Assembly (NCBI GenBank): GCA_964016885.1
Contig: OZ024747.1
Span: 78,554,001 to 78,618,000 of the forward strand
Source of the DNA: Eledone cirrhosa
Taxonomy: Eukaryota
DNA: 64,000 nucleotides
Direction of reading: 5' to 3'
Shown one piece after another: positions 1,873 through 56,049 of this stretch (position 1 is its first letter; each line of letters opens with the position of its first letter). Position numbers and translations under genes: made by a program. Below the pieces are notes generated by a model that saw only the letters and a program-made list of their open reading frames with translations, searched no databases and was not told the DNA's origin.

Positions 1873-2154
1873 TAGAATTAGACTAATACCTGACACTATC
1901 TCATGACAACAGTGACCACAACTATAGAATTAGACTAATACCTGACACTACCTCATGACAACAGTGACCACAACTATAGAATTAGACAAATACCTGACAC
2001 TATCTCATGACAACAGTGACCACAACTATAGAATTAGACTAATACCTGACACTATCTCATGTCAACAGTCACCACAACTATAGAATTAGACTAATACCTG
2101 ACACAATCTCATGACAACAGTGACCACAACTATAGAATTAGACTAATACCTGAC

Positions 2155-24700: not shown

Positions 24701-27049
24701 TAGAATTAGACTAATAGCTGACACTATCTCATGTCAACAGTGACCACAACTATAGAATTAGACTAATAGCTGACACTATCTCACGTCAACAGTGACCACA
24801 ACTATAGAATTAGACTAATACCTGACACTATCTCACGACAACAGTGACCACAACTATAGAATTAGACTAATACCTGACACTATCTCATGACAACAGTGAC
24901 CACAACTATAGAATTAGACTAATACCTGACACTATCTCATGACAACAGTGACCACAACTATAGAATTAAACTAATACCTGACACTATCTCATGACAACAG
25001 TGACCACAACTATAGAATTAGACTAATACCTGACACTATCTCATGTCAACAGTGACCACAACTATAGAATTAGACTAATACCTGACACTATCTCATGACA
25101 ACAGTGACCACATCTATAGAATTAGACTAATACCTGACACTATCTCATGACAACAGTGACCACAACTATAGAATTAGACTAATACCTGACACTATCTCAT
25201 GACAACAGTGACCACAACTATAGAATTAGACTAATACCTGACACTATCTCATGACAACAGTGACCACAACTATAGAATTAGACTAATACCTGACACTATC
25301 TCATGACAACAGTGACCACAACTATAGAATTAGACTAATACCTGACACTATCTCATGACAACAGTGACCACAACTATAGAATTAGACTAATACCTGACAC
25401 TATCTCATGACAACAGTGACCACAACTATAGAATTAGACTAATACCTGACACTATCTCATGACAACAGTGACCACAACTATAGAATTAGACTAATACCTG
25501 ACACTATCTCATGACAACAGTGACCACAACTATAGAATTAGACTAATACCTGACACTATCTCATGACAACAGTGACCACAACTATAGAATTAGACTAATA
25601 CCTGACACTATCTCATGACAACAGTGACCACAACTATAGAATTAGACTAATACCTGACACTATCTCATGACAACAGTGACCACAACTATAGAATTAGACT
25701 AATACCTGACACTATCTCATGACAACAGTGACCACAACTATAGAATTAGACTAATACCTGACACTATCTCATGACAACAGTGACCACAACTATAGAATTA
25801 GACTAATACCTGACACTATCTCATGACAACAGTGACCACAACTATAGAATTAGACTAATACCTGACACTATCTCATGTCAACAGTGACCACAACTATAGA
25901 ATTAGACTAATACCTGACACTATCTCATGTCAACAGTGACCACAACTATAGAATTAGACTAATAGCTGACACTATCTCATGACAACAGTGACCACAACTA
26001 TAGAATTAGACTAATAGCTGACACTATCTCATGACAACAGTGACCACAACTATAGAATTAGACTAATAGCTGACACTATCTCATGACAACAGTGACCTCA
26101 ACTATATAATTAGACTAATACCTGACACTATCTCACGTCAACAGTGACCACAACTATAGAATTAGACTAATACCTGACACTATCTCATGACAACAGTGAC
26201 CACAACTATAGAATTAGACTAATACCTGACACTATCTCATGTCAACAGTGACCACAACTATAGAATTAGACTAATACCTGACACTATCTCATGACAACAG
26301 TGACCACAACTATAGAATTAGACTAATACCTGACACTATCTCATGACAACAGTGACCACAACTATAGAATTAGACTAATACCTGACACTATCTCATGACA
26401 ACAGTGACCACAACTATAGAATTAGACTAATACCTGACACTATCTCATGACAACAGTGACCACAACTATAGAATTAGACTAATACCTGACACTATCTCAT
26501 GACAACAGTGACCACAACTATAGAATTAGACTAATACCTGACACTATCTCATGACAACAGTGACCACAACTATAGAATTAGACTAATACCTGACACTATC
26601 TCATGACAACAGTGACCACAACTATAGAATTAGACTAATACCTGACACTATCTCATGACAACAGTGACCACAACTATAGAATTAGACTAATACCTGACAC
26701 TATCTCATGACAACAGTGACCACAACTATAGAATTAGACTAATACCTGACACTATCTCATGACAACAGTGACCACAACTATAGAATTAGACTAATACCTG
26801 ACACTATCTCATGACAACAGTGACCACAACTATAGAATTAGACTAATACCTGACACTATCTCATGACAACAGTGACCACAACTATAGAATTAGACTAATA
26901 CCTGACACTATCTCATGACAACAGTGACCACAACTATAGAATTAGACTAATACCTGACACAATCTCATGACAACAGTGACCACAACTATAGAATTAGACT
27001 AATACTTGACACTATCTCATGACAACAGTGACCACACCTATAGAATTAG

Positions 27050-30000
27050 ACTAATACCTGACACTATCTCATATCAACAGTGACCACAACTATAGAATTA
27101 GACTAATACCTGACACTATCTCATGACAACAGTGACCACAACTATAGAATTAGACTAATACCTGACACTATCTCATGTCAACAGTGACCACAACTATAGA
27201 ATTAGACTAATACCTGACACTATCTCATGTCAACAGTGACCACAACTATAGAATTAGACTAATACCTGACACTATCTCATGACAACAGTGACCACAACTA
27301 TAGAATTAGACTAATACCTGACACTATCTCATGACAACAGTGACCACAATAATAGAATTAGACTAATACCTGACACTATCTCATGACAACAGTGACCACA
27401 TCTATAGAATTAGACTAATACCTGACACTATCTCATGACAACAGTGACCACATCTATAGAATTAGACTAATACCAGACACTATCTCATATCAACAGTGAC
27501 CACAACTATAGAATTAGACTAATACCTGACACTATCTCATGACAACAGTGACCACAACTATAGAATTAGACTAATACCTGACACTATCTCATGACAACAG
27601 TGACCACATCTATAGAATTAGACTAATACCTGACACTATCTCATGACAACAGTGACCACAACTATAGAATTAGACTAATACCTGACACTATCTCATGACA
27701 ACAGTGACCACAACTATAGAATTAGACTAATACCTGACACTATCTCATGACAACAGTGACCACATCTATAGAATTAGACTAATACCTGACACTATCTCAT
27801 GATAACAGTGACCACAACTATAGAATTAGACTAATACCTGACACTATCTTATGACAACAGTGACCACAACTATAGAATTAGACTAATACCTGACACTATC
27901 TCATGATAACAGTGACCACAACTATAGAATTAGACTAATACCTGACACTATCTCATGACAACAGTGACCACAACTATAGAATTAGACTAATACCTGACAC
28001 TATCTCATGATAACAGTGACCACAACTATAGAATTAGACTAATACCTGACACTATCTCATGACAACAGTGACCACAACTATAGAATTAGACTAATACCTG
28101 ACACTATCTCATGTCAACAGTGACCACAACTATAGAATTAGACTAATAGCTGACACTATCTCATGACAACAGTGACCACAACTATAGAATTAGACTAATA
28201 CCTGACACTATCTCATGACAACAGTGACCACAACTATAGAATTAGACTAATACCTGACACTATCTCATGACAACAGTGACCACAACTATAGAATTAGACT
28301 AATACCTGACACTATCTCATGACAACAGTGACCACAACTATAGAATTAGACTAATACCTGACACTATCTCATGACAACAGTGACCACAACTATAGAATTA
28401 GACTAATACCTGACACTATCTCATGACAACAGTGACCACAACTATAGAATTAGACTAATACCTGACACTATCTCATGTCAACAGTGACCACAACTATAGA
28501 ATTAGACTAATACCTGACACTATCTCATATCAACAGTGACCACAACTATAGAATTAGACTAATACCTGACACTATCTCATGTCAACACTGACCACAACTA
28601 TAGAATTAGACTAATACCTGACACTATCTCACGTCAACAGTGACCACAACTATAGAATTAGACTAATACCTGACACTATCTCGTGTCAACAGTGAACACA
28701 ACTATAGAATTAGACTAATACCTGACACTATCTCACGTCAACAGTGACCACAACTATATAATTAGACTAATACCTGACACTATCTCATGACAACAGTGAC
28801 CACAACTATAGAATTAGACTAATACCTGACACTATCTCATGACAACAGTGACCACAACTATAGAATTAGACTAATACCTGACACTATCTCATGTCAACAG
28901 TGACCACAACTATAGAATTAGACTAATACCTGACACTATCTCATGTCAACAGTGACCACAACTATAGAATTAGACTAATACCTGACACTATCTCACGTCA
29001 ACAGTGACCACAACTATAGAATTAGACTAATACCTGACACTATCTCATGACAACAGTGACCACAACTATAGAATTAGACTAATACCTGACACTATCTCAT
29101 GACAACAGTGACCACAACTATAGAATTAGACTAATACCTGACACTATCTCATGACAACAGTGACCACAACTATAGAATTAGACTAATACCTGACACTATC
29201 TCATGACAACAGTGACCACAACTATAGAATTAGACTAATAGCTGACACTATCTCATGTCAACAGTGACCACAACTATAGAATTAGACTAATACCTGACAC
29301 TATCTCATATCAACAGTGACCACAACTATAGAATTAGACTAATACCTGACACTATCTCATGACAACAGTGACCACAACTATAGAATTAGACTAATACCTG
29401 ACACTATCTCATGACAACAGTGACCACAACTATAGAATTAGACTAATACCTGACACTATCTCATGACAACAGTGACCACAACTATAGAATTAGACTAATA
29501 GCTGACACTATCTCATGACAACAGTGACCACAACTATAGAATTAGACTAATACCTGACACTATCTCATGTCAACAGTGACCACAACTATAGAATTAGACT
29601 AATACTTGACACTATCTCATATCAACAGTGACCACAACTATAGAATTAGACTAATACCTGACACTATCTCATGACAACAGTGACCACAACTATAGAATTA
29701 GACTAATACCTGACACTATCTCATGACAACAGTGACCACAATAATAGAATTAGACTAATACCTGACACTATCTCATGACAACAGTGACCACATCTATAGA
29801 ATTAGACTAATACCTGACACTATCTCATGACAACAGTGACCACAACTATAGAATTAGACTAATACCTGACACTATCTCATGACAACAGTGACCACAACTA
29901 TAGAATTAGACTAATACCTGACACTATCTCATGACAACAATGACCACAACTATAGAATTAGACTAATACCTGACACTATCTCATGACAACAGTGACCAGA

Positions 30001-33000
30001 ACTATAGAATTAGACTAATACCTGACACTATCTCATGATAACAGTGACCACAACTATAGAATTAGACTAATACCTGACACTATCTCATGACAACAGTGAC
30101 CACAACTATAGAATTAGACTAATACCTGACACTATCTCATGACAACAGTGACCACAACTATAGAATTAGACTAATACCTGACACTATCTCACATCAACAG
30201 TGACCACAACTATAGAATTAGACTAATACCTGACACTATCTCATGACAACAGTGACCACAACTATAGAATTAGACTAATACCTGACACTATCTCATGTCA
30301 ACAGTGACCACAACTATAGAATTAGACTAATACCTGACACTATCTCATGTCAACAGTGACCACAACTATAGAATTAGACTAATACCTGACACTATCTCAT
30401 GACAACAGTGACCACAACTATAGAATTAGACTAATACTTGACACTATCTCATGACAACAGTGACCACACCTATAGAATTAGACTAATACCTGACACTATC
30501 TCATATCAACAGTGACCACAACTATAGAATTAGACTAATACCTGACACTATCTCATGATAACAGTGACCACAACTATAGAATTAGACTAATACCTGACAC
30601 TATCTCATGATAACAGTGACCACAACTATAGAATTAGACTAATACCTGACACTATCTCATGTCAACAGTGACCACAACTATAGAATTAGACTAATACCTG
30701 ACACTATCTCATGACAACAGTGACCACAACTATAGAATTAGACTAATACCTGACACTATTTCATGACAACAGTGACCACAACTATAGAATTAGACTAATA
30801 CCTGACACTATCTCATGATAACAGTGACCACAACTATAGAATTAGACTAATACCTGACACTATCTTATGACAACAGTGACCACAACTATAGAATTAGACT
30901 AATACCTGACACTATCTCATGACAACAGTGACCACAACTATAGAATTAGACTAATACCTGACACTATCTCATGACAACAGTGACCACAACTATAGAATTA
31001 GACTAATACCTGACACTATCTCATGACAACAGTGACCACAACTATAGTATTAGACTAATACCTGACACTATCTCATGACAACAGTGACCACAACTATAGA
31101 ATTAGACTAATACCTGACACTATCTCATATCAACAGTGACCACAACTATAGAATTAGACTAATACCTGACACTATCTCATGACAACAGTGACCACAACTA
31201 TAGAATTAGACTAATACCTGACACTATCTCATGTCAACAGTGACCACAACTATAGAATTAGACTAATACCTGACACTATCTCATGTCAACAGTGACCACA
31301 ACTATAGAATTAGACTAATACCTGACACTATCTCATGACAACAGTGACCACAACTATAGAATTAGACTAATACCTGACACTATCTCATGACAACAGTGAC
31401 CACAATAATAGAATTAGACTAATACCTGACACTATCTCATGACAACAGTGACCACATCTATAGAATTAGACTAATACCTGACACTATCTCATGACAACAG
31501 TGACCACATCTATAGAATTAGACTAATACCAGACACTATCTCATATCAACAGTGACCACAACTATAGAATTAGACTAATACCTGACCCTATCTCATGACA
31601 ACAGTGACCACAACTATAGAATTAGACTAATACCTGACACTATCTCATGACAACAGTGACCACATCTATAGAATTAGACTAATACCTGACACTATCTCAT
31701 GACAACAGTGACCACAACTATAGAATTAGACTAATACCTGACACTATCTCATGACAACAGTGACCACAACTATAGAATTAGACTAATACCTGACACTATC
31801 TCATGACAACAGTGACCACATCTATAGAATTAGACTAATACCTGACACTATCTCATGATAACAGTGACCACAACTATAGAATTAGACTAATACCTGACAC
31901 TATCTTATGACAACAGTGACCACAACTATAGAATTAGACTAATACCTGACACTATCTCATGATAACAGTGACCACAACTATAGAATTAGACTAATACCTG
32001 ACACTATCTCATGACAACAGTGACCACAACTATAGAATTAGACTAATACCTGACACTATCTCATGATAACAGTGACCACAACTATAGAATTAGACTAATA
32101 CCTGACACTATCTCATGACAACAGTGACCACAACTATAGAATTAGACTAATACCTGACACTATCTCATGTCAACAGTGACCACAACTATAGAATTAGACT
32201 AATAGCTGACACTATCTCATGACAACAGTGACCACAACTATAGAATTAGACTAATACCTGACACTATCTCATGACAACAGTGACCACAACTATAGAATTA
32301 GACTAATACCTGACACTATCTCATGACAACAGTGACCACAACTATAGAATTAGACTAATACCTGACACTATCTCATGACAACAGTGACCACAACTATAGA
32401 ATTAGACTAATACCTGACACTATCTCATGACAACAGTGACCACAACTATAGAATTAGACTAATACCTGACACTATCTCATGACAACAGTGACCACAACTA
32501 TAGAATTAGACTAATACCTGACACTATCTCATGTCAACAGTGACCACAACTATAGAATTAGACTAATACCTGACACTATCTCATATCAACAGTGACCACA
32601 ACTATAGAATTAGACTAATACCTGACACTATCTCATGTCAACACTGACCACAACTATAGAATTAGACTAATACCTGACACTATCTCACGTCAACAGTGAC
32701 CACAACTATAGAATTAGACTAATACCTGACACTATCTCGTGTCAACAGTGAACACAACTATAGAATTAGACTAATACCTGACACTATCTCACGTCAACAG
32801 TGACCACAACTATATAATTAGACTAATACCTGACACTATCTCATGACAACAGTGACCACAACTATAGAATTAGACTAATACCTGACACTATCTCATGACA
32901 ACAGTGACCACAACTATAGAATTAGACTAATACCTGACACTATCTCATGTCAACAGTGACCACAACTATAGAATTAGACTAATACCTGACACTATCTCAT

Positions 33001-35400
33001 ATCAACAGTGACCACAACTATAGAATTAGACTAATACCTGACACTATCTCATGACAACAGTGACCACAACTATAGAATTAGACTAATACCTGACACTATC
33101 TCATGACAACAGTGACCACAACTATAGAATTAGACTAATACCTGACACTATCTCATGACAACAGTGACCACAACTATAGAATTAGACTAATAGCTGACAC
33201 TATCTCATGACAACAGTGACCACAACTATAGAATTAGACTAATACCTGACACTATCTCATGTCAACAGTGACCACAACTATAGAATTAGACTAATACCTG
33301 ACACTATCTCACGTCAACAGTGACCACAACTATAGAATTAGACTAATACCTGACACTATCTCATGACAACAGTGACCACAACTATAGAATTAGACTAATA
33401 CCTGACACTATCTCATGACAACAGTGACCACAACTATAGAATTAGACTAATACCTGACACTATCTCATGACAACAGTGACCACAACTATAGAATTAGACT
33501 AATACCTGACACTATCTCATGACAACAGTGACCACAACTATAGAATTAGACTAATAGCTGACACTATCTCATGTCAACAGTGACCACAACTATAGAATTA
33601 GACTAATACCTGACACTATCTCATATCAACAGTGACCACAACTATAGAATTAGACTAATACCTGACACTATCTCATGACAACAGTGACCACAACTATAGA
33701 ATTAGACTAATACCTGACACTATCTCATGACAACAGTGACCACAACTATAGAATTAGACTAATACCTGACACTATCTCATGACAACAGTGACCACAACTA
33801 TAGAATTAGACTAATAGCTGACACTATCTCATGACAACAGTGACCACAACTATAGAATTAGACTAATACCTGACACTATCTCATGTCAACAGTGACCACA
33901 ACTATAGAATTAGACTAATACTTGACACTATCTCATATCAACAGTGACCACAACTATAGAATTAGACTAATACCTGACACTATCTCATGACAACAGTGAC
34001 CACAACTATAGAATTAGACTAATACCTGACACTATCTCATGACAACAGTGACCACAATAATAGAATTAGACTAATACCTGACACTATCTCATGACAACAG
34101 TGACCACATCTATAGAATTAGACTAATACCTGACACTATCTCATGACAACAGTGACCACAACTATAGAATTAGACTAATACCTGACACTATCTCATGACA
34201 ACAGTGACCACAACTATAGAATTAGACTAATACCTGACACTATCTCATGACAACAATGACCACAACTATAGAATTAGACTAATACCTGACACTATCTCAT
34301 GACAACAGTGACCAGAACTATAGAATTAGACTAATACCTGACACTATCTCATGATAACAGTGACCACAACTATAGAATTAGACTAATACCTGACACTATC
34401 TCATGACAACAGTGACCACAACTATAGAATTAGACTAATACCTGACACTATCTCATGACAAGAGTGACCACAACTATAGAATTAGACTAATACCTGACAC
34501 TATCTCACATCAACAGTGACCACAACTATAGAATTAGACTAATACCTGACACTATCTCATGACAACAGTGACCACAACTATAGAATTAGACTAATACCTG
34601 ACACTATCTCATGTCAACAGTGACCACAACTATAGAATTAGACTAATACCTGACACTATCTCATGTCAACAGTGACCACAACTATAGAATTAGACTAATA
34701 CCTGACACTATCTCATGACAACAGTGACCACAACTATAGAATTAGACTAATACTTGACACTATCTCATGACAACAGTGACCACACCTATAGAATTAGACT
34801 AATACCTGACACTATCTCATATCAACAGTGACCACAACTATAGAATTAGACTAATACCTGACACTATCTCATGATAACAGTGACCACAACTATAGAATTA
34901 GACTAATACCTGACACTATCTCATGATAACAGTGACCACAACTATAGAATTAGACTAATACCTGACACTATCTCATGTCAACAGTGACCACAACTATAGA
35001 ATTAGACTAATACCTGACACTATCTCATGACAACAGTGACCACAACTATAGAATTAGACTAATACCTGACACTATTTCATGACAACAGTGACCACAACTA
35101 TAGAATTAGACTAATACCTGACACTATCTCATGATAACAGTGACCACAACTATAGAATTAGACTAATACCTGACACTATCTTATGACAACAGTGACCACA
35201 ACTATAGAATTAGACTAATACCTGACACTATCTCATGACAACAGTGACCACAACTATAGAATTAGACTAATACCTGACACTATCTCATGACAACAGTGAC
35301 CACAACTATAGAATTAGACTAATACCTGACACTATCTCATGACAACAGTGACCACAACTATAGTATTAGACTAATACCTGACACTATCTCATGACAACAG
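27050..35400 (+). repeat. Tandem duplication, offset 78 then 83 monomers (5 extra monomers near 33000-33250)
   Basis: T19A 27475/31531, G40C 28588/32644 and A31G 28683/32739 lie at +4056. G40A 29940/34256, C28T 30760/35076 and A4T 31048/35364 lie at +4316. Confidence 0.9.
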
Positions 35401-35599
35401 TGACCACAACTATAGAATTAGACTAATACCTGACACTATCTCATGACAACAGTGACCACAACTATAGAATTAGACTAATACCTGACACTATCTCATGACA
35501 ACAGTGACCACAACTATAGAATTAGACTAATACCTGACACTATCTCATGACAACAGTGACCACAACTATAGAATTAGACTAATACCTGACACTATCTCA

Positions 35600-38500
35600 T
35601 GACAACAGTGACCACAACTCTAGAATTAGACTAATACCTGACACTATCTCATGACAACAGTGGCCACAACTATAGAATTAGACTAATACCTGACACTATC
35701 TCATGACAACAGTGACCACAACTATAGAATTAGACTAATACCTGACACTATCTCATGACAACAGTGACCACAACTATAGAATTAGACTAATACCTGACAC
35801 TATCTCATGTCAACAGTGACCACAACTATAGAATTAGACTAATACCTGACACTATCTCATGACAACAGTGACCACAACTATAGAATTAGACTAATACCTG
35901 ACACTATCTCATGACAACAGTGACCACAACTATAGAATTAGACTAATACCTGACACTATCTCATGACAACAGTGACCACAACTATAGAATTAGACTAATA
36001 CTTGACACTATCTCATGACAACAGTGACCACACCTATAGAATTAGACTAATACCTGACACTATCTCATATCAACAGTGACCACAACTATAGAATTAGACT
36101 AATACCTGACACTATCTCATGACAACAGTGACCACAACTATAGAATTAGACTAATACCTGACACTATCTCATGTCAACAGTGACCACAACTATAGAATTA
36201 GACTAATACCTGACACTACCTCATGACAACATTGACCACAACTATAGAATTAGACTAATACCTGACACTATCTCATGACAACAGTGACCACAACTATAGA
36301 ATTAGACTAATACCTGACACTATCTCATGACAACAGTGACCACAACTATAGAATTAGACTAATACCTGACACTACCTCATGACAACATTGACCACAACTA
36401 TAGAATTAGACTAATACCTGACACTATCTCATGACAACAGTGACCACAACTATAGAATTAGACTAATACCTGACACTATCACATGACAACAGTGACCACA
36501 ACTATAGAATTAGACTAATACCTGACACTATCTCAAGACAACAGTGACCACAACTATAGAATTAGACTAATACCTGACACTATCTCATGACAACAGTGAC
36601 CACAACTATAGAATTAGACTAATACTTGACACTATCTCATGACAACAGTGACCACACCTATAGAATTAGACTAATACCTGACACTATCTCATATCAACAG
36701 TGACCACAACTATAGAATTAGACTAATACCTGACACTATCTCATGACAACAGTGACCTCAACTATATAATTAGACTAATACCTGACACTATCTCACGTCA
36801 ACAGTGACCACAACTATAGAATTAGACTAATACCTGACACTATCTCATGTCAACATTGACCACAACTCTAGAATTAGACTAATACCTGACACTATCTCAT
36901 GACAACAGTGACCTCAACTATAGAATTAGACTAATACCTGACACTATCTCATGACAACAGTGACCACAACTATAGAATTAGACTAATACCTGACACTATC
37001 TCACGTCAACAGTGACCACAACTATAGAATTAGACTAATACCTGACACTATCTCACGTCAACAGTGACCACAACTATAGAATTAGACTAATACCTGACAC
37101 TATCTCATGACAACAGTGACCACAACTATAGAATTAGACTAATACCTGACACTATCTCATGACAACAGTGACCACACCTATAGAATTAGACTAATACCTG
37201 ACACTATCTCATGACAACAGTGACCACAACTATAGAATTAGACTAATACCTGACACTATCTCATGACAACAGTGACCACAACTATAGAATTAGACTAATA
37301 CCTGACACTATCTCATGACAACAGTGACCACAACTATAGAATTAGACTAATACCTGACACTATCTCATGATAACAGTGACCTCAACTATAGAATTAGACT
37401 AATACCTGACACTATCTCATGTCAACAGTGACCACAACTATAGAATTAGACTAATACCTGACACTATCTCATGACAACAGTGACCACAACTATAGAATTA
37501 GACTAATACCTGACACTATCTCATGTCAACAGTGACCACAACTATAGAATTAGACTAATACCTGACACTATCTCATGTCAACAGTGACCACAACTATAGA
37601 ATTAGACTAATACCTGACACTATCTCATGACAACAGTGACCACAACTATAGAATTAGACTAATACCTGACACTATCTCATGTCAACAGTGACCACAACTA
37701 TAGAATTAGACTAATACCTGACACTATCTCATGACAACAGTGACCACAACTATAGAATTAGACTAATACCTGACACTATCTCATGACAACAGTGACCACA
37801 CCTATAGAATTAGACTAATACCTGACACTATCTCATGTCAACAGTGACCACAACTATAGAATTAGACTAATACCTGACACTATCTCATGACAACAGTGAC
37901 CACAACTATAGAATTAGACTAATACCTGACACTATCTCATGACAACAGTGACCACAACTATAGAATTAGACTAATACCTGACACTATCTCATGACAACAG
38001 TGACCACAACTATAGAATTAGACTAATACCTGACACTATCTCATGTCAACAGTGACCACAACTATAGAATTAGACTAATACCTGACACTATCTCATGACA
38101 ACAGTGACCACAACTATAGAATTAGACTAATACCTGACACTATCTCATGACAACAGTGACCACAACTATAGAATTAGACTAATACCTGACACTATCTCAT
38201 GACAACAGTGACCACAACTATAGAATTAGACTAATACCTGACACTATCTCATGTCAACAGTGACCACAACTATAGAATTAGACTAATACCTGACACTATC
38301 TCATGTCAACAGTGACCACAACTATAGAATTAGACTAATACCTGACACTATCTCATGACAACAGTGACCACAACTATAGAATTAGACTAATACCTGACAC
38401 TATCTCATGTCAACAGTGACCACAACTATAGAATTAGACTAATACCTGACACTATCTCATGACAACAGTGACCACAACTATAGAATTAGACTAATACCTG

Positions 38501-41500
38501 ACACTATCTCATGACAACAGTGACCACACCTATAGAATTAGACTAATACCTGACACTATCTCACGTCAACAGTGACCACAACTATAGAATTAGACTAATA
38601 CCTGACACTATCTCATGACAACAGTGACCACAACTATAGAATTAGACTAATACCTGACACTATCTCATGACAACAGTGACCACAACTATAGAATTAGACT
38701 AATACCTGACACTATCTCATGACAACAGTGACCACAACTATAGAATTAGACTAATACCTGACACTATCTCATGTCAACAGTGACCACAACTATAGAATTA
38801 GACTAATACCTGACACTATCTCATGACAACAGTGACCACAACTATAGAATTAGACTAATACCTGACACTATCTCATGACAACAGTGACCACAACTATAGA
38901 ATTAGACTAATACCTGACACTATCTCATGTCAACAGTGACCACAACTATAGAATTAGACTAATACCTGACACTATCTCATGACAACAGTGACCACAACTA
39001 TAGAATTAGACTAATACTTGACACTATCTCATGACAACAGTGACCACACCTATAGAATTAGACTAATACCTGACACTATCTCATATCAACAGTGACCACA
39101 ACTATAGAATTAGACTAATACCTGACACTATCTCATGACAACAGTGACCACAACTATAGAATTAGACTAATACCTGACACTATCTCATGTCAACAGTGAC
39201 CACAACTATAGAATTAGACTAATACCTGACACTACCTCATGACAACATTGACCACAACTATAGAATTAGACTAATACCTGACACTATCTCATGACAACAG
39301 TGACCACAACTATAGAATTAGACTAATACCTGACACTATCTCATGACAACAGTGACCACAACTATAGAATTAGACTAATACCTGACACTACCTCATGACA
39401 ACATTGACCACAACTATAGAATTAGACTAATACCTGACACTATCTCATGACAACAGTGACCACAACTATAGAATTAGACTAATACCTGACACTATCACAT
39501 GACAACAGTGACCACAACTATAGAATTAGACTAATACCTGACACTATCTCATGACAACAGTGACCACAACTATAGAATTAGACTAATACCTGACACTATC
39601 TCATGACAACAGTGACCACAACTATAGAATTAGACTAATACTTGACACTATCTCATGACAACAGTGACCACACCTATAGAATTAGACTAATACCTGACAC
39701 TATCTCATATCAACAGTGACCACAACTATAGAATTAGACTAATACCTGACACTATCTCATGACAACAGTGACCTCAACTATATAATTAGACTAATACCTG
39801 ACACTATCTCACGTCAACAGTGACCACAACTATAGAATTAGACTAATACCTGACACTATCTCATGTCAACAGTGACCACAACTCTAGAATTAGACTAATA
39901 CCTGACACTATCTCATGACAACAGTGACCTCAACTATAGAATTAGACTAATACCTGACACTATCTCATGACAACAGTGACCACAACTATAGAATTAGACT
40001 AATACCTGACACTATCTCACGTCAACAGTGACCACAACTATAGAATTAGACTAATACCTGACACTATCTCACGTCAACAGTGACCACAACTATAGAATTA
40101 GACTAATACCTGACACTATCTCATGACAACAGTGACCACAACTATAGAATTAGACTAATACCTGACACTATCTCATGACAACAGTGACCACACCTATAGA
40201 ATTAGACTAATACCTGACACTATCTCATGACAACAGTGACCACAACTATAGAATTAGACTAATACCTGACACTATCTCATGACAACAGTGACCACAACTA
40301 TAGAATTAGACTAATACCTGACACTATCTCATGACAACAGTGACCACAACTATAGAATTAGACTAATACCTGACACTATCTCATGATAACAGTGACCTCA
40401 ACTATAGAATTAGACTAATACCTGACACTATCTCATGTCAACAGTGACCACAACTATAGAATTAGACTAATACCTGACACTATCTCATGACAACAGTGAC
40501 CACAACTATAGAATTAGACTAATACCTGACACTATCTCATGTCAACAGTGACCACAACTATAGAATTAGATTAATACCTGACACTATCTCATGACAACAG
40601 TGACCACAACTATAGAATTAGACTAATACCTGACACTATCTCATGTCAACAGTGACCACAACTATAGAATTAGACTAATACCTGACACTATCTCATGTCA
40701 ACAGTGACCACAACTCTAGAATTAGACTAATACCTGACACTATCTCATGACAACAGTGACCTCAACTATAGAATTAGACTAATACCTGACACTATCTCAT
40801 GACAACAGTGACCACAACTATAGAATTAGACTAATACCTGACACTATCTCATGACAACAGTGACCACAACTATAGAATTAGACTAATACCTGACACTATC
40901 TCATGACAACAGTGACCACAACTATAGAATTAGACTAATACCTGACACTATCTCATGATAACAGTGACCACAACTATAGAATTAGACTAATACCTGACAC
41001 TATCTCATGTCAACAGTGACCACAACTCTAGAATTAGACTAATACCTGACACTATCTCATGACAACAGTGACCACAACTATAGAATTAGACTAATACCTG
41101 ACACTATCTCATGATAACAGTGACCACAACTATAGAATTAGACTAATACCTGACACTATCTCATGTCAACAGTGACCACAACTCTAGAATTAGACTAATA
41201 CCTGACACTATCTCATGACAACAGTGACCACAACTATAGAATTAGACTAATACCTGACACTATCTCATGACAACAGTGACCACAACTATAGAATTAGACT
41301 AATACCTGACACTATCTCATGACAACAGTGACCACAACTATAGAATTAGTCTAATACCTGACACTATCTCATGACAACAGTGACCACAACTATAGAATTA
41401 GACTAATACCTGACACTATCTCATGATAACAGTGACCACAACTATAGAATTAGACTAATACCTGACACTATCTCATGTCAACAGTGACCACAACTCTAGA

Positions 41501-44500
41501 ATTAGACTAATACCTGACACTATCTCATGACAACAGTGACCACAACTATAGAATTAGACTAATACCTGACACTATCTCATGACAACAGTGACCACACCTA
41601 TAGAATTAGACTAATACCTGACACTATCTCATGACAACAGTGACCACAACTATAGAATTAGACTAATACCTGACACTACCTCATGACAACAGTGACCACA
41701 ACTATAGAATTAGACTAATACCTGACACTATCTCATGACAACAGTGGCCACAACTATAGAATTAGACTAATACCTGACACTATCTCATGACAACAGTGAC
41801 CACAACTATAGAATTAGACTAATACCTGACACTATCTCATGACAACAGTGACCACAACTATAGAATTAGACTAATACCTGACACTATCTCATGTTTCTAT
41901 TGCATCTAATGTTCTGTAATATTATGATGGTAATTTGGAAAGATTAAAACAAAATTTTTAAAAATAGAATTAGACTAATACCTGACACTATCTCATGTCA
42001 ACAGTGACCACAACTATAGAATTAGACTAATACCTGACACTATCTCATGACAACAGTGACCACAACTATAGAATTAGACTAATACTTGACACTATCTCAT
42101 GACAACAGTGACCACACCTATAGAATTAGACTAATACCTGACACTATCTCATATCAACAGTGACCACAACTATAGAATTAGACTAATACCTGACACTATC
42201 TCATGACAACAGTGACCACAACTATAGAATTAGACTAATACCTGACACTATCTCATGTCAACAGTGACCACAACTATAGAATTAGACTAATACCTGACAC
42301 TACCTCATGACAACATTGACCACAACTATAGAATTAGACTAATACCTGACACTATCTCATGACAACAGTGACCACAACTATAGAATTAGACTAATACCTG
42401 ACACTATCTCATGACAACAGTGACCACAACTATAGAATTAGACTAATACCTGACACTACCTCATGACAACATTGACCACAACTATAGAATTAGACTAATA
42501 CCTGACACTATCTCATGACAACAGTGACCACAACTATAGAATTAGACTAATACCTGACACTATCTCATGTCAACAGTGACCACAACTATAGAATTAGACT
42601 AATACCTGACACTATCTCATGACAACAGTGACCACAACTATAGAATTAGACTAATACCTGACACTATCTCATGACAACAGTGACCACAACTATAGAATTA
42701 GACTAATACTTGACACTATCTCATGACAACAGTGACCACACCTATAGAATTAGACTAATACCTGACACTATCTCATATCAACAGTGACCACAACTATAGA
42801 ATTAGACTAATACCTGACACTATCTCATGACAACAGTGACCTCAACTATATAATTAGACTAATACCTGACACTATCTCACGTCAACAGTGACCACAACTA
42901 TAGAATTAGACTAATACCTGACACTATCTCATGACAACAGTGACCACAACTATAGAATTAGACTAATACCTGACACTATCTCACGTCAACAGTGACCACA
43001 ACTATAGAATTAGACTAATACCTGACACTATCTCACGTCAACAGTGACCACAACTATAGAATTAGACTAATACCTGACACTATCTCATGACAACAGTGAC
43101 CACAACTATAGAATTAGACTAATACCTGACACTATCTCATGACAACAGTGACCACACCTATAGAATTAGACTAATACCTGACACTATCTCATGACAACAG
43201 TGACCACAACTATAGAATTAGACTAATACCTGACACTATCTCATGACAACAGTGACCACAACTATAGAATTAGACTAATACCTGACACTATCTCATGACA
43301 ACAGTGACCACAACTATAGAATTAGACTAATACCTGACACTATCTCATGATAACAGTGACCTCAACTATAGAATTAGACTAATACCTGACACTATCTCAT
43401 GTCAACAGTGACCACAACTATAGAATTAGACTAATACCTGACACTATCTCATGACAACAGTGACCACAACTATAGAATTAGACTAATACCTGACACTATC
43501 TCATGTCAACAGTGACCACAACTATAGAATTAGACTAATACCTGACACTATCTCATGTCAACAGTGACCACAACTATAGAATTAGACTAATACCTGACAC
43601 TATCTCATGACAACAGTGACCACAACTATAGAATTAGACTAATACCTGACACTATCTCATGTCAACAGTGACCACAACTATAGAATTAGACTAATACCTG
43701 ACACTATCTCATGACAACAGTGACCACAACTATAGAATTAGACTAATACCTGACACTATCTCATGTCAACAGTGACCACAACTATAGAATTAGACTAATA
43801 CCTGACACTATCTCATGTCAACAGTGACCACAACTCTAGAATTAGACTAATACCTGACACTATCTCATGACAACAGTGACCTCAACTATAGAATTAGACT
43901 AATACCTGACACTATCTCATGACAACAGTGACCACAACTATAGAATTAGACTAATACCTGACACTATCTCATGACAACAGTGACCACAACTATAGAATTA
44001 GACTAATACCTGACACTATCTCATGACAACAGTGACCACAACTATAGAATTAGACTAATACCTGACACTATCTCATGATAACAGTGACCACAACTATAGA
44101 ATTAGACTAATACCTGACACTATCTCATGTCAACAGTGACCACAACTATAGAATTAGACTAATACCTGACACTATCTCATGACAACAGTGACCACAACTA
44201 TAGAATTAGACTAATACCTGACACTATCTCATGATAACAGTGACCACAACTATAGAATTAGACTAATACCTGACACTATCTCATGTCAACAGTGACCACA
44301 ACTCTAGAATTAGACTAATACCTGACACTATCTCATGACAACAGTGACCACAACTATAGAATTAGACTAATACCTGACACTATCTCATGACAACAGTGAC
44401 CACAACTATAGAATTAGACTAATACCTGACACTATCTCATGACAACAGTGACCACAACTATAGAATTAGACTAATACCTGACACTATCTCATGACAACAG

Positions 44501-47500
44501 TGACCACAACTATAGAATTAGACTAATACCTGACACTATCTCATGATAACAGTGACCACAACTATAGAATTAGACTAATACCTGACACTATCTCATGTCA
44601 ACAGTGACCACAACTCTAGAATTAAACTAATACCTGACACTATCTCATGACAACAGTGACCACAACTATAGAATTAGACTAATACCTGACACTATCTCAT
44701 GACAACAGTGACCACACCTATAGAATTAGACTAATACCTGACACTATCTCATGACAACAGTGACCACAACTATAGAATTAGACTAATACCTGACACTATC
44801 TCATGACAACAGTGGCCACAACTATAGAATTAGACTAATACCTGACACTATCTCATGACAACAGTGACCACAACTATAGAATTAGACTAATACCTGACAC
44901 TATCTCATGACAACAGTGACCACAACTATAGAATTAGACTAATACCTGACACTATCTCATGTCAACAGTGACCACAACTATAGAATTAGACTAATACCTG
45001 ACACTATCTCATGACAACAGTGACCACAACTATAGAATTAGACTAATACCTGACACTATCTCATGACAACAGTGACCACAACTATAGAATTAGACTAATA
45101 CCTGACACTATCTCATGACAACAGTGACCACAACTATAGAATTAGACTAATACTTGACACTATCTCATGACAACAGTGACCACACCTATAGAATTAGACT
45201 AATACCTGACACTATCTCATATCAACAGTGACCACAACTATAGAATTAGACTAATACCTGACACTATCTCATGACAACAGTGACCACAACTATAGAATTA
45301 GACTAATACCTGACACTATCTCATGTCAACAGTGACCACAACTATAGAATTAGACTAATACCTGACACTACCTCATGACAACATTGACCACAACTATAGA
45401 ATTAGACTAATACCTGACACTATCTCATGACAACAGTGACCACAACTATAGAATTAGACTAATACCTGACACTATCTCATGACAACAGTGACCACAACTA
45501 TAGAATTAGACTAATACCTGACACTACCTCATGACAACATTGACCACAACTATAGAATTAGACTAATACCTGACACTATCTCATGACAACAGTGACCACA
45601 ACTATAGAATTAGACTAATACCTGACACTATCACATGACAACAGTGACCACAACTATAGAGTTAGACTAATACCTGACACTATCTCATGACAGCAGTGAC
45701 CACAACTATAGAATTAGACTAATACCTGACACTATCTCATGACAACAGTGACCACAACTATAGAATTAGACTAATACTTGACACTATCTCATGACAACAG
45801 TGACCACACCTATAGAATTAGACTAATACCTGACACTATCTCATATCAACAGTGACCACAACTATAGAATTAGACTAATACCTGACACTATCTCATGACA
45901 ACAGTGACCTCAACTATATAATTAGACTAATACCTGACACTATCTCACGTCAACAGTGACCACAACTATAGAATTAGACTAATACCTGACACTATCTCAT
46001 GTCAACAGTGACCACAACTCTAGAATTAGACTAATACCTGACACTATCTCATGACAACAGTGACCTCAACTATAGAATTAGACTAATACCTGACACTATC
46101 TCATGACAACAGTGACCACAACTATAGAATTAGACTAATACCTGACACTATCTCACGTCAACAGTGACCACAACTATAGAATTAGACTAATACCTGACAC
46201 TATCTCACGTCAACAGTGACCACAACTATAGAATTAGACTAATACCTGACACTATCTCATGACAACAGTGACCACAACTATAGAATTAGACTAATACCTG
46301 ACACTATCTCATGACAACAGTGACCACACCTATAGAATTAGACTAATACCTGACACTATCTCATGACAACAGTGACCACAACTATAGAATTAGACTAATA
46401 CCTGACACTATCTCATGACAACAGTGACCACAACTATAGAATTAGACTAATACCTGACACTATCTCATGACAACAGTGACCACAACTATAGAATTAGACT
46501 AATACCTGACACTATCTCATGATAACAGTGACCTCAACTATAGAATTAGACTAATACCTGACACTATCTCATGTCAACAGTGACCACAACTATAGAATTA
46601 GACTAATACCTGACACTATCTCATGTCAACAGTGACCACAACTATAGAATTAGACTAATACCTGACACTATCTCATGTCAACAGTGACCACAACTATAGA
46701 ATTAGACTAATACCTGACACTATCTCATGACAACAGTGACCACAACTATAGAATTAGACTAATACCTGACACTATCTCATGTCAACAGTGACCACAACTA
46801 TAGAATTAGACTAATACCTGACACTATCTCATGACAACAGTGACCACAACTATAGAATTAGACTAATACCTGACACTATCTCATGTCAACAGTGACCACA
46901 ACTATAGAATTAGACTAATACCTGACACTATCTCATGTCAACAGTGACCACAACTCTAGAATTAGACTAATACCTGACACTATCTCATGACAACAGTGAC
47001 CTCAACTATAGAATTAGACTAATACCTGACACTATCTCATGACAACAGTGACCACAACTATAGAATTAGACTAATACCTGACACTATCTCATGACAACAG
47101 TGACCACAACTATAGAATTAGACTAATACCTGACACTATCTCATGACAACAGTGACCACAACTATAGAATTAGACTAATACCTGACACTATCTCATGATA
47201 ACAGTGACCACAACTATAGAATTAGACTAATACCTGACACTATCTCATGTCAACAGTGACCACAACTCTAGAATTAGACTAATACCTGACACTATCTCAT
47301 GACAACAGTGACCACAACTATAGAATTAGACTAATACCTGACACTATCTCATGATAACAGTGACCACAACTATAGAATTAGACTAATACCTGACACTATC
47401 TCATGTCAACAGTGACCACAACTCTAGAATTAGACTAATACCTGACACTATCTCATGACAACAGTGACCACAACTATAGAATTAGACTAATACCTGACAC

Positions 47501-50500
47501 TATCTCATGACAACAGTGACCACAACTATAGAATTAGACTAATACCTGACACTATCTCATGACAACAGTGACCACAACTATAGAATTAGACTAATACCTG
47601 ACACTATCTCATGACAACAGTGACCACAACTATAGAATTAGACTAATACCTGACACTATCTCATGATAACAGTGACCACAACTATAGAATTAGACTAATA
47701 CCTGACACTATCTCATGTCAACAGTGACCACAACTCTAGAATTAGACTAATACCTGACACTATCTCATGACAACAGTGACCACAACTATAGAATTAGACT
47801 AATACCTGACACTATCTCATGACAACAGTGACCACACCTATAGAATTAGACTAATACCTGACACTATCTCATGACAACAGTGACCACAACTATAGAATTA
47901 GACTAATACCTGACACTACCTCATGACAACAGTGACCACAACTATAGAATTAGACTAATACCTGAGACTATCTCATGTCAACAGTGACCACAACTATAGA
48001 ATTAGACTAATACCTGACACTATCTCATGACAACAGTGACCACAACTATAGAATTAGACTAATACCTGACACTATCTCATGACAACAGTGACCACAACTA
48101 TAGAATTAGACTAATACCTGACACAATCTCATGTCAACAGTGACCACAACTATAGAATTAGACTAATACCTGACACTATCTCATGACAACAGTGACCACA
48201 ACTATAGAATTAGACTAATACCTGACACTATCTCATGACAACAGTGACCACAACTATAGAATTAGACTAATACCTGACACTATCTCATGACAACAGTGAC
48301 CACAACTATAGAATTAGACTAATACTTGACACTATCTCATGACAACAGTGACCACACCTATAGAATTAGACTAATACCTGACACTATCTCATATCAACAG
48401 TGACCACAACTATAGAATTAGACTAATACCTGACACTATCTCATGACAACAGTGACCACAACTATAGAATTAGACTAATACCTGACACTATCTCATGTCA
48501 ACAGTGACCACAACTATAGAATTAGACTAATACCTGACACTACCTCATGACAACATTGACCACAACTATAGAATTAGACTAATACCTGACACTATCTCAT
48601 GACAACAGTGACCACAACTATAGAATTAGACTAATACCTGACACTATCTCATGACAACAGTGACCACAACTATAGAATTAGACTAATACCTGACACTACC
48701 TCATGACAACATTGACCACAACTATAGAATTAGACTAATACCTGACACTATCTCATGACAACAGTGACCACAACTATAGAATTAGACTAATACCTGACAC
48801 TATCACATGACAACAGTGACCACAACTATAGAGTTAGACTAATACCTGACACTATCTCATGACAGCAGTGACCACAACTATAGAATTAGACTAATACCTG
48901 ACACTATCTCATGACAACAGTGACCACAACTATAGAATTAGACTAATACTTGACACTATCTCATGACAACAGTGACCACACCTATAGAATTAGACTAATA
49001 CCTGACACTATCTCATATCAACAGTGACCACAACTATAGAATTAGACTAATACCTGACACTATCTCATGACAACAGTGACCTCAACTATATAATTAGACT
49101 AATACCTGACACTATCTCACGTCAACAGTGACCACAACTATAGAATTAGACTAATACCTGACACTATCTCATGTCAACAGTGACCACAACTCTAGAATTA
49201 GACTAATACCTGACACTATCTCATGACAACAGTGACCTCAACTATAGAATTAGACTAATACCTGACACTATCTCATGACAACAGTGACCACAACTATAGA
49301 ATTAGACTAATACCTGACACTATCTCACGTCAACAGTGACCACAACTATAGAATTAGACTAATACCTGACACTATCTCACGTCAACAGTGACCACAACTA
49401 TAGAATTAGACTAATACCTGACACTATCTCATGACAACAGTGACCACAACTATAGAATTAGACTAATACCTGACACTATCTCATGACAACAGTGACCACA
49501 CCTATAGAATTAGACTAATACCTGACACTATCTCATGACAACAGTGACCACAACTATAGAATTAGACTAATACCTGACACTATCTCATGACAACAGTGAC
49601 CACAACTATAGAATTAGACTAATACCTGACACTATCTCATGACAACAGTGACCACAACTATAGAATTAGACTAATACCTGACACTATCTCATGATAACAG
49701 TGACCTCAACTATAGAATTAGACTAATACCTGACACTATCTCATGTCAACAGTGACCACAACTATAGAATTAGACTAATACCTGACACTATCTCATGACA
49801 ACAGTGACCACAACTATAGAATTAGACTAATACCTGACACTATCTCATGTCAACAGTGACCACAACTATAGAATTAGACTAATACCTGACACTATCTCAT
49901 GTCAACAGTGACCACAACTATAGAATTAGACTAATACCTGACACTATCTCATGACAACAGTGACCACAACTATAGAATTAGACTAATACCTGACACTATC
50001 TCATGTCAACAGTGACCACAACTATAGAATTAGACTAATACCTGACACTATCTCATGACAACAGTGACCACAACTATAGAATTAGACTAATACCTGACAC
50101 TATCTCACATCAACAGTGACCACAACTATAGAATTAGACTAATACCTGACACTATCTCATGTCAACAGTGACCACAACTCTAGAATTAGACTAATACCTG
50201 ACACTATCTCATGACAACAGTGACCTCAACTATAGAATTAGACTAATACCTGACACTATCTCATGACAACAGTGACCACAACTATAGAATTAGACTAATA
50301 CCTGACACTATCTCATGACAACAGTGACCACAACTATAGAATTAGACTAATACCTGACACTATCTCATGACAACAGTGACCACAACTATAGAATTAGACT
50401 AATACCTGACACTATCTCATGATAACAGTGACCACAACTATAGAATTAGACTAATACCTGACACTATCTCATGTCAACAGTCACCACAACTCTAGAATTA

Positions 50501-51000
50501 GACTAATACCTGACACTATCTCATGACAACAGTGACCACAACTATAGAATTAGACTAATACCTGACACTATCTCATGATAACAGTGACCACAACTATAGA
50601 ATTAGACTAATACCTGACACTATCTCATGTCAACAGTGACCACAACTCTAGAATTAGACTAATACCTGACACTATCTCATGACAACAGTGACCACAACTA
50701 TAGAATTAGACTAATACCTGACACTATCTGATGACAACAGTGACCACAACTATAGAATTAGACTAATACCTGACACTATCTCATGATAACAGTGACCACA
50801 ACTATAGAATTAGACTAATACCTGACACTATCTCATGTCAACAGTGACCACAACTCTAGAATTAGACTAATACCTGACACTATCTCATGACAACAGTGAC
50901 CACAACTATAGAATTAGACTAATACCTGACACTATCTCATGACAACAGTGACCACACCTATAGAATTAGACTAATACCTGACACTATCTCATGACAACAG
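35600..51000 (+). repeat. About 3.1-kb higher-order repeat (58-61 monomers), about 5 copies
   Basis: The doubly variant monomer T27C+G40T (ACTACCTCATGACAACATTGAC) occurs in pairs 3 monomers apart, starting at 36219, 39235, 42303, 45371 and 48543 (spacings 58, 59, 59, 61 monomers). Each pair is preceded by a C18T+A49C monomer and a CATATC monomer. Confidence 0.9.
41895..41963. other. 69-bp unique AT-rich non-satellite segment interrupting the array in register
   Basis: TTCTATTGCATCTAATGTTCTGTAATATTATGATGGTAATTTGGAAAGATTAAAACAAAATTTTTAAAA has about 20% GC (14/69) and does not align to the monomer on the + strand. The satellite resumes at 41964 (ATAGAATTAGAC), and the next monomer starts at 41965 = 1+52x807. 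Confidence 0.97.
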
Positions 51001-52769
51001 TGACCACAACTATAGAATTAGACTAATACCTGACACTATCTCATGACAACAGTGACCACACCTATAGAATTAGAGTAATACCTGACACTACCTCATGACA
51101 ACAGTGACCACAACTATAGAATTAGACTAATACCTGACACTATCTCATGTCAACAGTGACCACAACTCTAGAATTAGACTAATACCTGACACTATCTCAT
51201 GTCAACAGTGACCACAACTATAGAATTAGACTAATACCTGACACTATCTCATGACAACAGTGACCACAACTATAGAATTAGACTAATACCTGACACTATC
51301 TCATGACAACAGTGACCTCAACTATCGAATTAGACTAATACCTGACACTACCTCATGACAACAGTGACCACATCTATAGAATTAGACTAATACCTGACAC
51401 TATCTCATGACAACAGTGACCACAACTATAGAATTAGACTAATACCTGACACTATCTCATGACAACAGTGACCACAACTATAGAATTAGACTAATACCTG
51501 ACACTATCTCATGACAACAGTGACCACAATAATAGAATTAGACTAATACCTGACACTATCTCATGACAACAGTGACCACAACTATAGAATTAGACTAATA
51601 CCTGACACTATCTCATGACAACAGTGACCACAACTATATAATTAGACTAATACCTGACACTATCTCACGTCAACAATGACCACAACTATAGAATTAGACT
51701 AATACCTGACACTATCTCACATCAACAGTGACCACAACTATAGAATTAGACTAATACCTGACACGATCTCATGTCAACAGTGACCACAACTATAGAATTA
51801 GACTAATACCTGACACTATCTCATGACAACAGTGACCACAACTATAGAATTAGACTAATACCTGACACTATCTCATGTCAACAGTGACCACAACTATAGA
51901 ATTAGACTAATACCTGACACTATCTCACATCAACAGTGACCACAACTATAGAATTAGACTAATACCTGACACTATCTCATGACAACAGTGACCACAACTA
52001 TAGAATTAGACTAATACCTGACACTATCTCATGACAACAGTGACCACAACTATAGAATTAGACTAATACCTGACACTATCTCATGAAAACAGTGACCACA
52101 ACTATAGAATTAGACTAATACCTGACACTATCTCATGACAACAGTGACCACAACTATAGAATTAGACTAATACCTGACACTATCTCATGACAACAGTGAC
52201 CACAACTATAGAATTAGACTAATACCTGACACTATCTCATGACAACAGTGACCACAACTATAGAATTAGACTAATACCTGACACTATCTCATGACAACAG
52301 TGACCACAACTATAGAATTAGACTAATACCTGACACTATCTCATGACAACAGTGACCACAACTATAGAATTAGACTAATACCTGACACTATCTCATGACA
52401 ACAGTGACCACAACTATAGTATTAGACTAATACCTGACACTATCTCATGACAACAGTGACCACAACTATAGAATTAGACTAATACCTGACACTATCTCAC
52501 ATCAACAGTGACCACAACTATAGAATTAGACTAATACCTGACACTATCTCATGTCAACAGTGACCACAACTATAGAATTAGACTAATACCTGACACTATC
52601 TCATGACAACAGTGACCACAACTATAGAATTAGACTAATACCTGACACTATCTCATGTCAACAGTGACCACAACTATAGAATTAGACTAATACCTGACAC
52701 TATCTCATGACAACAGTGACCACAACTATAGAATTAGACTAATACCTGACACTATCTCATGTCAACAGT

Positions 52770-52774
52770 AACAC
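52770..52774. other. 51-bp monomer: 1-bp deletion plus substitution (CAGTGACCACAAC -> CAGTAACACAAC)
   Basis: Line 52741 reads gtcaacagta acacaactat instead of gtcaacagtg accacaacta. All downstream monomers are shifted by one base. Confidence 0.95.
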
Positions 52775-55700
52775 AACTATAGAATTAGACTAATACCTGA
52801 CACTATCTCATGTCAACAGTGACCACAACTATAGAATTAGACTAATACCTGACACTATCTCATGACAACAGTGACCACAACTATAGAATTAGACTAATAC
52901 CTGACACTATCTCATGTCAACAGTGACCACAACTATAGAATTAGACTAATACCTGACACTATCTCATGACAACAGTGACCACAACTATAGAATTAGACTA
53001 ATACCTGACACTATCTCATGACAACAGTGACCTCAACTATAGAATTAGACTAATACCTGACACTATCTCACGTCAACAGTGACCACAACTATAGAATTAG
53101 ACTAATACCTGACACTATCTTATGTCAACAGTGACCACAACTATAGAATTAGACTAATACCTGACACTATCTCATGACAACAGTGACCACAACTATAGAA
53201 TTAGACTAATACCTGACACTATCTCATGACAACAGTGACCACAACTATAGAATTAGACTAATACCTGACACTACCTCATGACAACAGTGACCACAACTAT
53301 AGAATTAGACTAATACCTGACACTACCTCATGACAACAGTGACCACAACTATAGAATTAGACTAATACCTGACACTATCTCATGACAACAGTGACCACAA
53401 CTATAGAATTAGACTAATACCAGACACTATCTCATGACAACAGTGAGCACATCTATAGAATTAGACTAATACCTGACACTATCTCATGACAACAGTGAGC
53501 ACATCTATAGAATTAGACTAATACCTGACACTATCTCATGTCAACAGTGACCACAACTATAGAATTAGACTAATACCTGACACTATCTCATGACAACAGT
53601 GACCACAACTATAGAATTAGACTAATACCTGACACTATCTCATGTCAACAGTGACCACAACTATAGAATTAGACTAATACCTGACACTATCTCACATCAA
53701 CAGTGACCACAACTATAGAATTAGACTAATACCTGACACTATCTCATGACAACAGTGACCACAACTATAGAATTAGACTAATACCTGACACTATCTCATG
53801 ACAACAGTGACCACAACTATAGTATTAGACTAATACCTGACACTATCTCATGACAACAGTGACCACAACTATAGAATTAGACTAATACCTGACACTATCT
53901 CATGACAACAGTGACCACAACTATAGAATTAGACTAATACCTGACACTATCTCATGACAACAGTGACCACAACTATAGAATTAGACTAATACCTGACACT
54001 ATCTCATGAAAACAGTGACCACAACTATAGAATTAGACTAATACCTGACACTATCTCATGACAACAGTGACCACAACTATAGAATTAGACTAATACCTGA
54101 CACTATCTCATGACAACAGTGACCACAACTATAGAATTAGACTAATACCTGACACTATCTCATGACAACAGTGACCACAACTATAGAATTAGACTAATAC
54201 CTGACACTATCTCATGACAACAGTGACCACAACTATAGAATTAGACTAATACCTGACACTATCTCATGACAACAGTGACCACAACTATAGAATTAGACTA
54301 ATACCTGACACTATCTCACATCAACAGTGACCACAACTATAGAATTAGACTAATACCTGACACTATCTCATGTCAACAGTGACCACAACTATAGAATTAG
54401 ACTAATACCTGACACTATCTCATGACAACAGTGACCACAACTATAGAATTAGACTAATACCTGACACTATCTCATGTCAACAGTGACCACAACTATAGAA
54501 TTAGACTAATACCTGACACTATCTCATGACAACAGTGACCACAACTATAGAATTAGACTAATACCTGACACTATCTCATGTGAACAGTGACCACAACTAT
54601 AGAATTAGACTAATACCTGACACTATCTCATGACAACAGTGACCACAACTATAGAATTAGACTAATACCTGACACTATCTCATGACAACAGTGACCTCAA
54701 CTATAGAATTAGACTAATACCTGACACTATCTCACGTCAACAGTGACCACAACTATAGAATTAGACTAATACCTGACACTATCTTATGTCAACAGTGACC
54801 ACAACTATAGAATTAGACTAATACCTGACACTATCTCATGACAACAGTGACCACAACTATAGAATTAGACTAATACCTGACACTATCTCATGACAACAGT
54901 GACCACAACTATAGAATTAGACTAATACCTGACACTACCTCATGACAACAGTGACCACAACTATAGAATTAGACTAATACCTGACACTACCTCATGACAA
55001 CAGTGACCACAACTATAGAATTAGACTAATACCTGACACTATCTCATGACAACAGTGACCACAACTATAGAATTAGACTAATACCTGACACTATCTCATG
55101 TCAACAGTGACCACAACTATAGAATTAGACTAATACCTGACACTATCTCATGACAACAGTGACCACAACTATAGAATTAGACTAATACCTGACACTATCT
55201 CATGACAACAGTGACCTCAACTATAGAATTAGACTAATACCTGACACTATCTCACGTCAACAGTGACCACAACTATAGAATTAGACTAATACCTGACACT
55301 ATCTTATGTCAACAGTGACCACAACTATAGAATTAGACTAATACCTGACACTATCTCATGACAACAGTGACCACAACTATAGAATTAGACTAATACCTGA
55401 CACTATCTCATGACAACAGTGACCACAACTATAGAATTAGACTAATACCTGACACTACCTCATGACAACAGTGACCACAACTATAGAATTAGACTAATAC
55501 CTGACACTACCTCATGACAACAGTGACCACAACTATAGAATTAGACTAATACCTGACACTATCTCATGACAACAGTGACCACAACTATAGAATTAGACTA
55601 ATACCTGACACTATCTCATGTCAACAGTGACCACAACTATAGAATTAGACTAATACCTGACACTATCTCATGACAACAGTGACCACAACTATAGAATTAG

Positions 55701-56049
55701 ACTAATACCTGACACTATCTCATGACAACAGTGACCTCAACTATAGAATTAGACTAATACCTGACACTATCTCATGACAACAGTGACCACAACTATAGAA
55801 TTAGACTAATACCTGACACTACCTCATGACAACAGTGACCACAACTATAGAATTAGACTAATACCTGACACTACCTCATGACAACAGTGACCACAACTAT
55901 AGAATTAGACTAATACCTGACACTATCTCATGACAACAGTGACCACAACTATAGAATTAGACTAATACCTGACACTATCTCATGTCAACAGTGACCACAA
56001 CTATAGAATTAGACTAATACCTGACACTATCTCATGACAACAGTGACCA

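Follow-up and report, generated by a model that had tools for sequence, protein, structure and literature searches.

A 69-bp copy of a distant locus within a 52-bp satellite array of the Eledone cirrhosa assembly: a candidate templated sequence insertion

The satellite array and a single foreign segment

The stretch of DNA analysed here (the window; 64,000 nucleotides, G000:C7:78554001-78618000) is a single 52-bp array of 1230.8 copies with 97% matches, within which lies one segment of different origin.

1..64000, + strand: 52-bp satellite, part of one 98-kb array at G000:C7:78541338-78639352
41895..41963, + strand: 69-bp insert, identical to G000:C5:101263476-101263544 (+)

Genome-wide, a pattern of 31 monomer bases is matched 1,287 times on the forward strand and 0 times on the reverse (genome places being given for the first 100 listed), and the count within C7:78541338-78639352 is also 1,287; thus, the 98-kb array contains all exact copies. 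Higher-order units of ~59 monomers surround the insert. At the array's right end (L007/L029/L030, window-relative 70252-84499), higher-order units carry fixed 43-bp and 50-bp monomers, in 5 copies each. The array itself contains no N; a 200-N scaffold gap lies ~7 kb past its right end (L030; the G000:C7, 78646001-78648000 bin). The sole phase shift in the window, at 52729-52780, consists of a 1-bp deletion and an adjacent substitution, and this variant is single-copy in the 98-kb array.

A scan of the window for unique 12-mers returned 27 runs, of which the sole one to exceed a point change spans 41884-41973. This bears out a preliminary description of the window, according to which the segment is the only non-satellite sequence in 64 kb; the remainder of the 98-kb array contains no second foreign run. 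The insert is exactly 69 bases long, as a distant copy agrees with it at 69/69 bases and the next base differs at either side. It comprises 28 T, 27 A, 9 G and 5 C (20% GC), while the 52-bp monomer has 13 C and 6 G; these recounted values agree with those first reported. Compared in register, it agrees with the satellite at 17/69 bases, an identity that rules out a diverged satellite monomer, and the best agreement over all phases and strands is 27/69. On its own the insert shows no structure (fold z -0.8). The monomer phase is equal to its left and right, as had been described, with 104 bases between good monomers. The preliminary description also relied on markers that lie seven monomers apart both here and in two paralogous blocks. 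The marker positions are correct, but the constancy of the count should carry less weight than it seems to, because ~6 whole-monomer indels per 62 monomers separate one higher-order copy from its neighbour.

The insert is a real feature of the assembly and a candidate feature of the genome. The assembly locus equals the window slice, which rules out an edit confined to the window. Of the technical patch that had been proposed, the window-level form is thereby excluded, while an artefact at the level of the assembly keeps a low probability that deserves to be weighed.

Length changes elsewhere in the array

Across the 98-kb array, 13 of ~1,880 monomers change length. These indels are of five kinds (-9 five times, -2 five times, -3, -1 and +1), all of them out of register, and two of the kinds have been amplified to 5 copies each. 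A constraint on array phasing had been suggested for this satellite, and selection of that sort, under which only in-register inserts persist in the array, is consistent with the rarity of indels. Homogenisation alone predicts that rarity, however, and all of the visible indels break register, including the two kinds that spread. These indels leave a strict phasing constraint unsupported and largely refuted, and we consider phasing selection a very improbable source of the insert's register.

A single intact donor on another chromosome

The preliminary description had raised the possibility that the segment is captured ectopic DNA, with a source to be sought in the same assembly. At E<=10 the 69-mer has 2 matches in G000, both 100%: the window itself and C5:101263476-101263544. 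This conjecture has therefore held up, with an exact, intact and unique donor on another chromosome. The donor is unbroken in the assembly and in the contigs of three public runs (X1-X3, see below), indicating a copy and not an excision. The locus is AT-rich, and no satellite 12-mer lies within 10 kb on each side (20 kb), so there was no reciprocal swap; together with flank identities of 11 and 17 of 52, this rules out reciprocal exchange or homologous conversion with the donor.

The donor sits in a hairpin-forming element:

G000:C5:101263425-101263776 (L002:1450-1801): inverted repeat at the donor, bounded by TA

This inverted repeat is single-copy and 352 bp long, with arms of ~70 bp that are ~85% complementary (fold z -7.2). 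The insert takes in the final 20 bases of the left arm and then extends into the loop. Overlap with an inverted-repeat arm was found for 3,961/196,068 background 69-mers (2.0%), the background being non-simple 69-mers in 247 kb that include the donor's own 20-kb neighbourhood. The element is MITE-like in shape; it is possible that it is an old MITE-like relic or a hairpin RNA, and it may be a double-stranded RNA substrate. A young MITE family as the donor is unsupported, the arm pattern having 2 exact matches (both arms) and 14 one-mismatch matches vs 10 for the control. No known RNA family comes near gathering score at the donor, and 2 weak matches fall on adjoining microsatellite-like DNA. 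Among the 8 ORFs scanned of the 14 listed for the donor region, coding context is limited to one sub-threshold GIY-YIG match.

Several other elements were observed in passing. The ORF with the sub-threshold GIY-YIG match (L005:5250-5915, E 0.0016) lies ~5.5 kb from the donor and is possibly a Penelope-like remnant. Elements of 330-470 bp that are similar to the donor repeat but unrelated to it occur in L005, L042 and L043, and a dispersed tandem family with a spacing of 1.5 kb or longer (L054-L061; G000:C5:33.40-33.42 Mb) shares a 19-21-base match with the donor arm.

Junctions and the A-rich end

Both junctions are blunt, with microhomology of 0 and 0 and no added bases; of 20,000 pastes placed at random, 29% likewise showed zero microhomology at both junctions. 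The left flank ends in 5 bases that are found again 6 bases upstream of the donor start, a match that random pastes equal in 5-6% of cases (p 0.05-0.06). Towards its right end the insert contains a short motif:

41943..41948, + strand: ATTAAA hexamer, ending 15 bases before the insert's A-rich end

We take ATTAAA at this position to be a poly(A)-signal variant. The four As that end the insert are also present in the donor and are thus templated; no untemplated A tail was found on the insert, and a TTTT/A target site is absent at both breakpoints on either strand. A hexamer together with at least four terminal As on one strand occurs in 225/183,168 background 69-mers (0.12%), the hexamer alone in 7% and the A end alone in 2%. 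The arm overlap and the poly(A)-signal variant with its AAAA end make the donor look non-random, both tests being post hoc; indeed, all four statistics that lend support in this analysis are post hoc, from about eight features examined. The junction bases, judged by eye, do not fit an origin at a Hi-C restriction junction, given the enzyme sites that we presume to be the relevant ones.

Replacement or duplication at the target

The preliminary description interpreted the segment as a length-neutral replacement. The flanks offer other ways to read it:

41860..41894, + strand: left copy of a 35-bp direct repeat (no other exact repeat flanks the insert), with the A34T variant as its last base
41964..41998, + strand: right copy of the 35-bp direct repeat; its A34T (41998) is missing from both paralogous blocks
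38896..41894, + strand: left copy in the tandem-duplication reading (2,999 bp); the right flank of the insert matches 38896 onward, 601 bases exact
41964..44962, + strand: right copy in the tandem-duplication reading; the left flank of the insert matches up to 44962, 215 bases exact

The monomer at 41965 has A34T (41998), and both 'paralogous' blocks are plain there. Within the 35-bp flanking repeat the A34T base alone is informative, the repeat being partly automatic in an array. The longest exact match of the right flank lies one higher-order unit upstream and that of the left flank one unit downstream; the flanks thus favour different paralogs (+3068 and -3068). Such discordance arises for 14-18% of 69-base masks placed at random, or for 2.6-2.7% by a stricter definition that was chosen post hoc. 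The putative 3-kb duplicates are not mutually closest, with 28 mismatches vs 9 between H2 and H4.

Three readings fit these observations. The first is a 69-for-69 replacement accompanied by an independent A34T change; the second is an insertion with a 35-bp flanking duplication and the loss of two monomers; in the third, the insert lies where the two copies of a 2,999-bp duplication meet, with a total that happens to equal one higher-order unit. Over 62 columns, 6 substitutions and 6 monomer indels distinguish adjacent higher-order copies, so either extra event would be ordinary. The A34T at 41998 better fits the 35-bp flanking duplication or the 3-kb duplication junction than it fits replacement. 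Of the original interpretation, the kept register stands, but length-neutral replacement is not established, as a 35-bp repeat or a 2,999-bp joint fits the flanks equally.

Read contigs, other arrays and a technical origin

X1-X3 are three public runs from one sample, in the form of contigs, and contain 4/16 sampled words. In 3/3 runs a single unbranched 728-bp contig carries the 69-mer near its middle, between C5 flanks; the depth of this contig is 5.5-9.4 and that of the satellite ~10,000. No junction piece is among the X1-X3 contigs listed, a result of low power given that our control, the single-copy two-change array variant at 52770, was seen in 0/3 runs. The absence of a junction from X1-X3 is therefore uninformative: either contig simplification drops single-copy array branches, or the sample has a different haplotype. 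In X2 and X3 the donor allele differs by one letter, and the insert equals the assembly's own C5 allele. The RAD run X4 leaves the interior of the insert uncovered.

The preliminary description also proposed a look at other arrays of this satellite for in-register foreign segments. The survey made here covered a 5S rDNA array of the same assembly, homogeneous, at least 395 kb long and with a unit of ~850-885 bp (L064-L103; G000:C4:92.70-93.10 Mb), and no foreign run was found in ~395 kb of it; 17 stretches of small contigs contained no long homogeneous array. The lack of a foreign run in the 5S array indicates that neither pastes nor real inserts are frequent. As such, the 5S survey rules out a frequent artefact and yields no length distribution. 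A head-to-head 5S arrangement is listed at C14:42.77 Mb.

These data bear on the idea that 69 bases of the same genome came to lie over 69 satellite bases through an edit, a software error or a read that was chimeric. Such a paste would explain the register and the marker count without coincidence, and it agrees with the zero microhomology and the absence of any untemplated base. It is likewise consistent with X1-X3, where the 69-mer occurs in C5 context only, and with the identity of the insert to the C5 allele of the assembly and not to that of X2 and X3. We know of no assembler step that makes same-length pastes of this kind, however, and we found no paper on assembly steps that do so in the literature searched. 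Few random pastes would take their bases from a donor with a hairpin and an A-rich end, or land beside a discordant marker, and no second patch is present in the rest of the 98-kb array or the 5S array. The missing junction says nothing in favour of a paste, since the control variant is missing too, and blunt ends distinguish little, as they arise both in random pastes at the frequency given above and in real events, according to the available portion of PMC11724301. Overall, a technical patch is unlikely, although we would not dismiss it.

A templated insertion as the favoured reading

We favour, with moderate confidence, a templated sequence insertion, with either DNA or RNA as the template, that occurred during break repair and fell in register by chance. 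The observations behind this reading are the exact and intact donor, the blunt junctions, the 35-bp direct repeat on both sides and the flanks that match different higher-order copies. A break in the array would have occurred after monomer position 34, and a short fragment from the hairpin-forming locus would have been joined to the broken end. This fragment may have been a released piece of DNA or, about equally likely, a cDNA of a short transcript primed at the A-rich end; the lack of an untemplated A tail and of a TTTT/A site weakens the RNA version. The array would then have resumed at position 52 of an upstream-type monomer, which makes a duplication of target sequence, of 35 bp or 2,999 bp, more probable than its overwriting. 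The insert exists in one copy and is identical to its donor, so the event is young. What counts against a templated insertion is that the register is owed to chance, with one further event needed under each reading of the flanks. That the 52-bp register was kept is probably due to chance, at odds of 1 in 52. A same-length paste explains the register for free, but findings of this kind draw attention because they look coincidental. The patch is most likely ordinary and young, with a known donor.

The register could also have been held by the repair itself. A broken end would have copied 69 distant bases, and its upstream satellite homology would have guided it back into the array; the foreign tail would have lain across from 69 bases of template and been extended from its mismatched end. 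The register then follows automatically whenever the offset of re-invasion is divisible by 52. This course also fits the switch to another higher-order copy after the insert and the 5-base match that lies offset at the left junction. However, this is a single event, the last two bases of the tail mismatch the template, unpaired tails are normally clipped, and we found no paper describing such tail retention in the literature searched. A model of satellite growth by BIR does contain out-of-register re-initiation behind the fork, as outlined in the accessible text of PMC8997354. We regard this course of events as rather improbable for the insert, and we are equally doubtful of its wider form, in which tandem-array repair keeps a non-homologous ectopic 3' tail in register and the insert, placed at the meeting point of two higher-order copies, would be the footprint of a break that added one 3-kb unit.

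If the templated insertion is real, it is a clean and young record of a satellite-array break that was patched with DNA of another chromosome, whose source is resolved to single bases. It would also tag one haplotype of an array that cannot otherwise be mapped. Were in-register inserts to prove common across arrays, they would suggest a repair route that preserves register and has not been described, and BIR models of satellite growth would be testable. If the insert is an artefact, accurate assemblies can contain same-length pastes that are visible only in homogeneous repeats.

Comparison with known systems

No title or abstract opening in the partial collection of literature searched concerned equal-length ectopic replacement in satellites. 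In the part of PMC8997354 available, which models array growth by BIR, mitochondrial insertions in a maize centromere are mentioned. Templated sequence insertions (TSIPs) are defined by Onozawa and Aplan 2016 (PMC5110952, in part) as coming from distant loci whose donors remain intact. The insert resembles their Class 2 in being a short exact copy of a distant intergenic locus, with a single distant donor (69/69, C5), an intact donor site and no untemplated poly(A), and its 69 bp are close to the 73-414 bp of the experimental events given there. In contrast to Class 2 as described in that text, it has no microhomology and no untemplated bases and keeps the monomer register, and it is known from an assembly; moreover, it lies in a satellite, whereas the survey excluded alpha satellite. 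With respect to target duplication, signal and tail, the insert has no untemplated tail, yet the 35-bp flanking repeat and ATTAAA are present.

These last features recall Class 1 TSIPs (LINE-1 ORF2-mediated), which, in the same portion of the paper, have a flanking direct repeat of at least 5 bp; the hexamer 15 bases before the A-rich end is a further likeness. The Class 1 signal lies 10-30 bases before the end, and here a variant hexamer is found at 15, although the hexamer alone is as common in background 69-mers as stated above. The differences are that the hexamer is ATTAAA and not AATAAA, that the As are templated with no untemplated tail of 10-40 A, and that the insertion is not at 5'-TTTT/A-3'.

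Polymerase theta tandem duplications (PMC13031629, PMC13031928, both in part) carry junction inserts of 1-20 bp from the flanks, with microhomology. An insert at a tandem-duplication joint is one reading here as well, but its 69 bp come from another chromosome. The distant templated insertions of yeast, as reported in the available text of PMC11724301, are similar in being copied and pasted from another locus with 0-4 nt of microhomology, many of the insertions at breaks having none. Their donors are said to be enriched in fragile regions. Those events arose at induced experimental breaks, whereas for the C5 donor it is the inverted repeat alone that suggests fragility.
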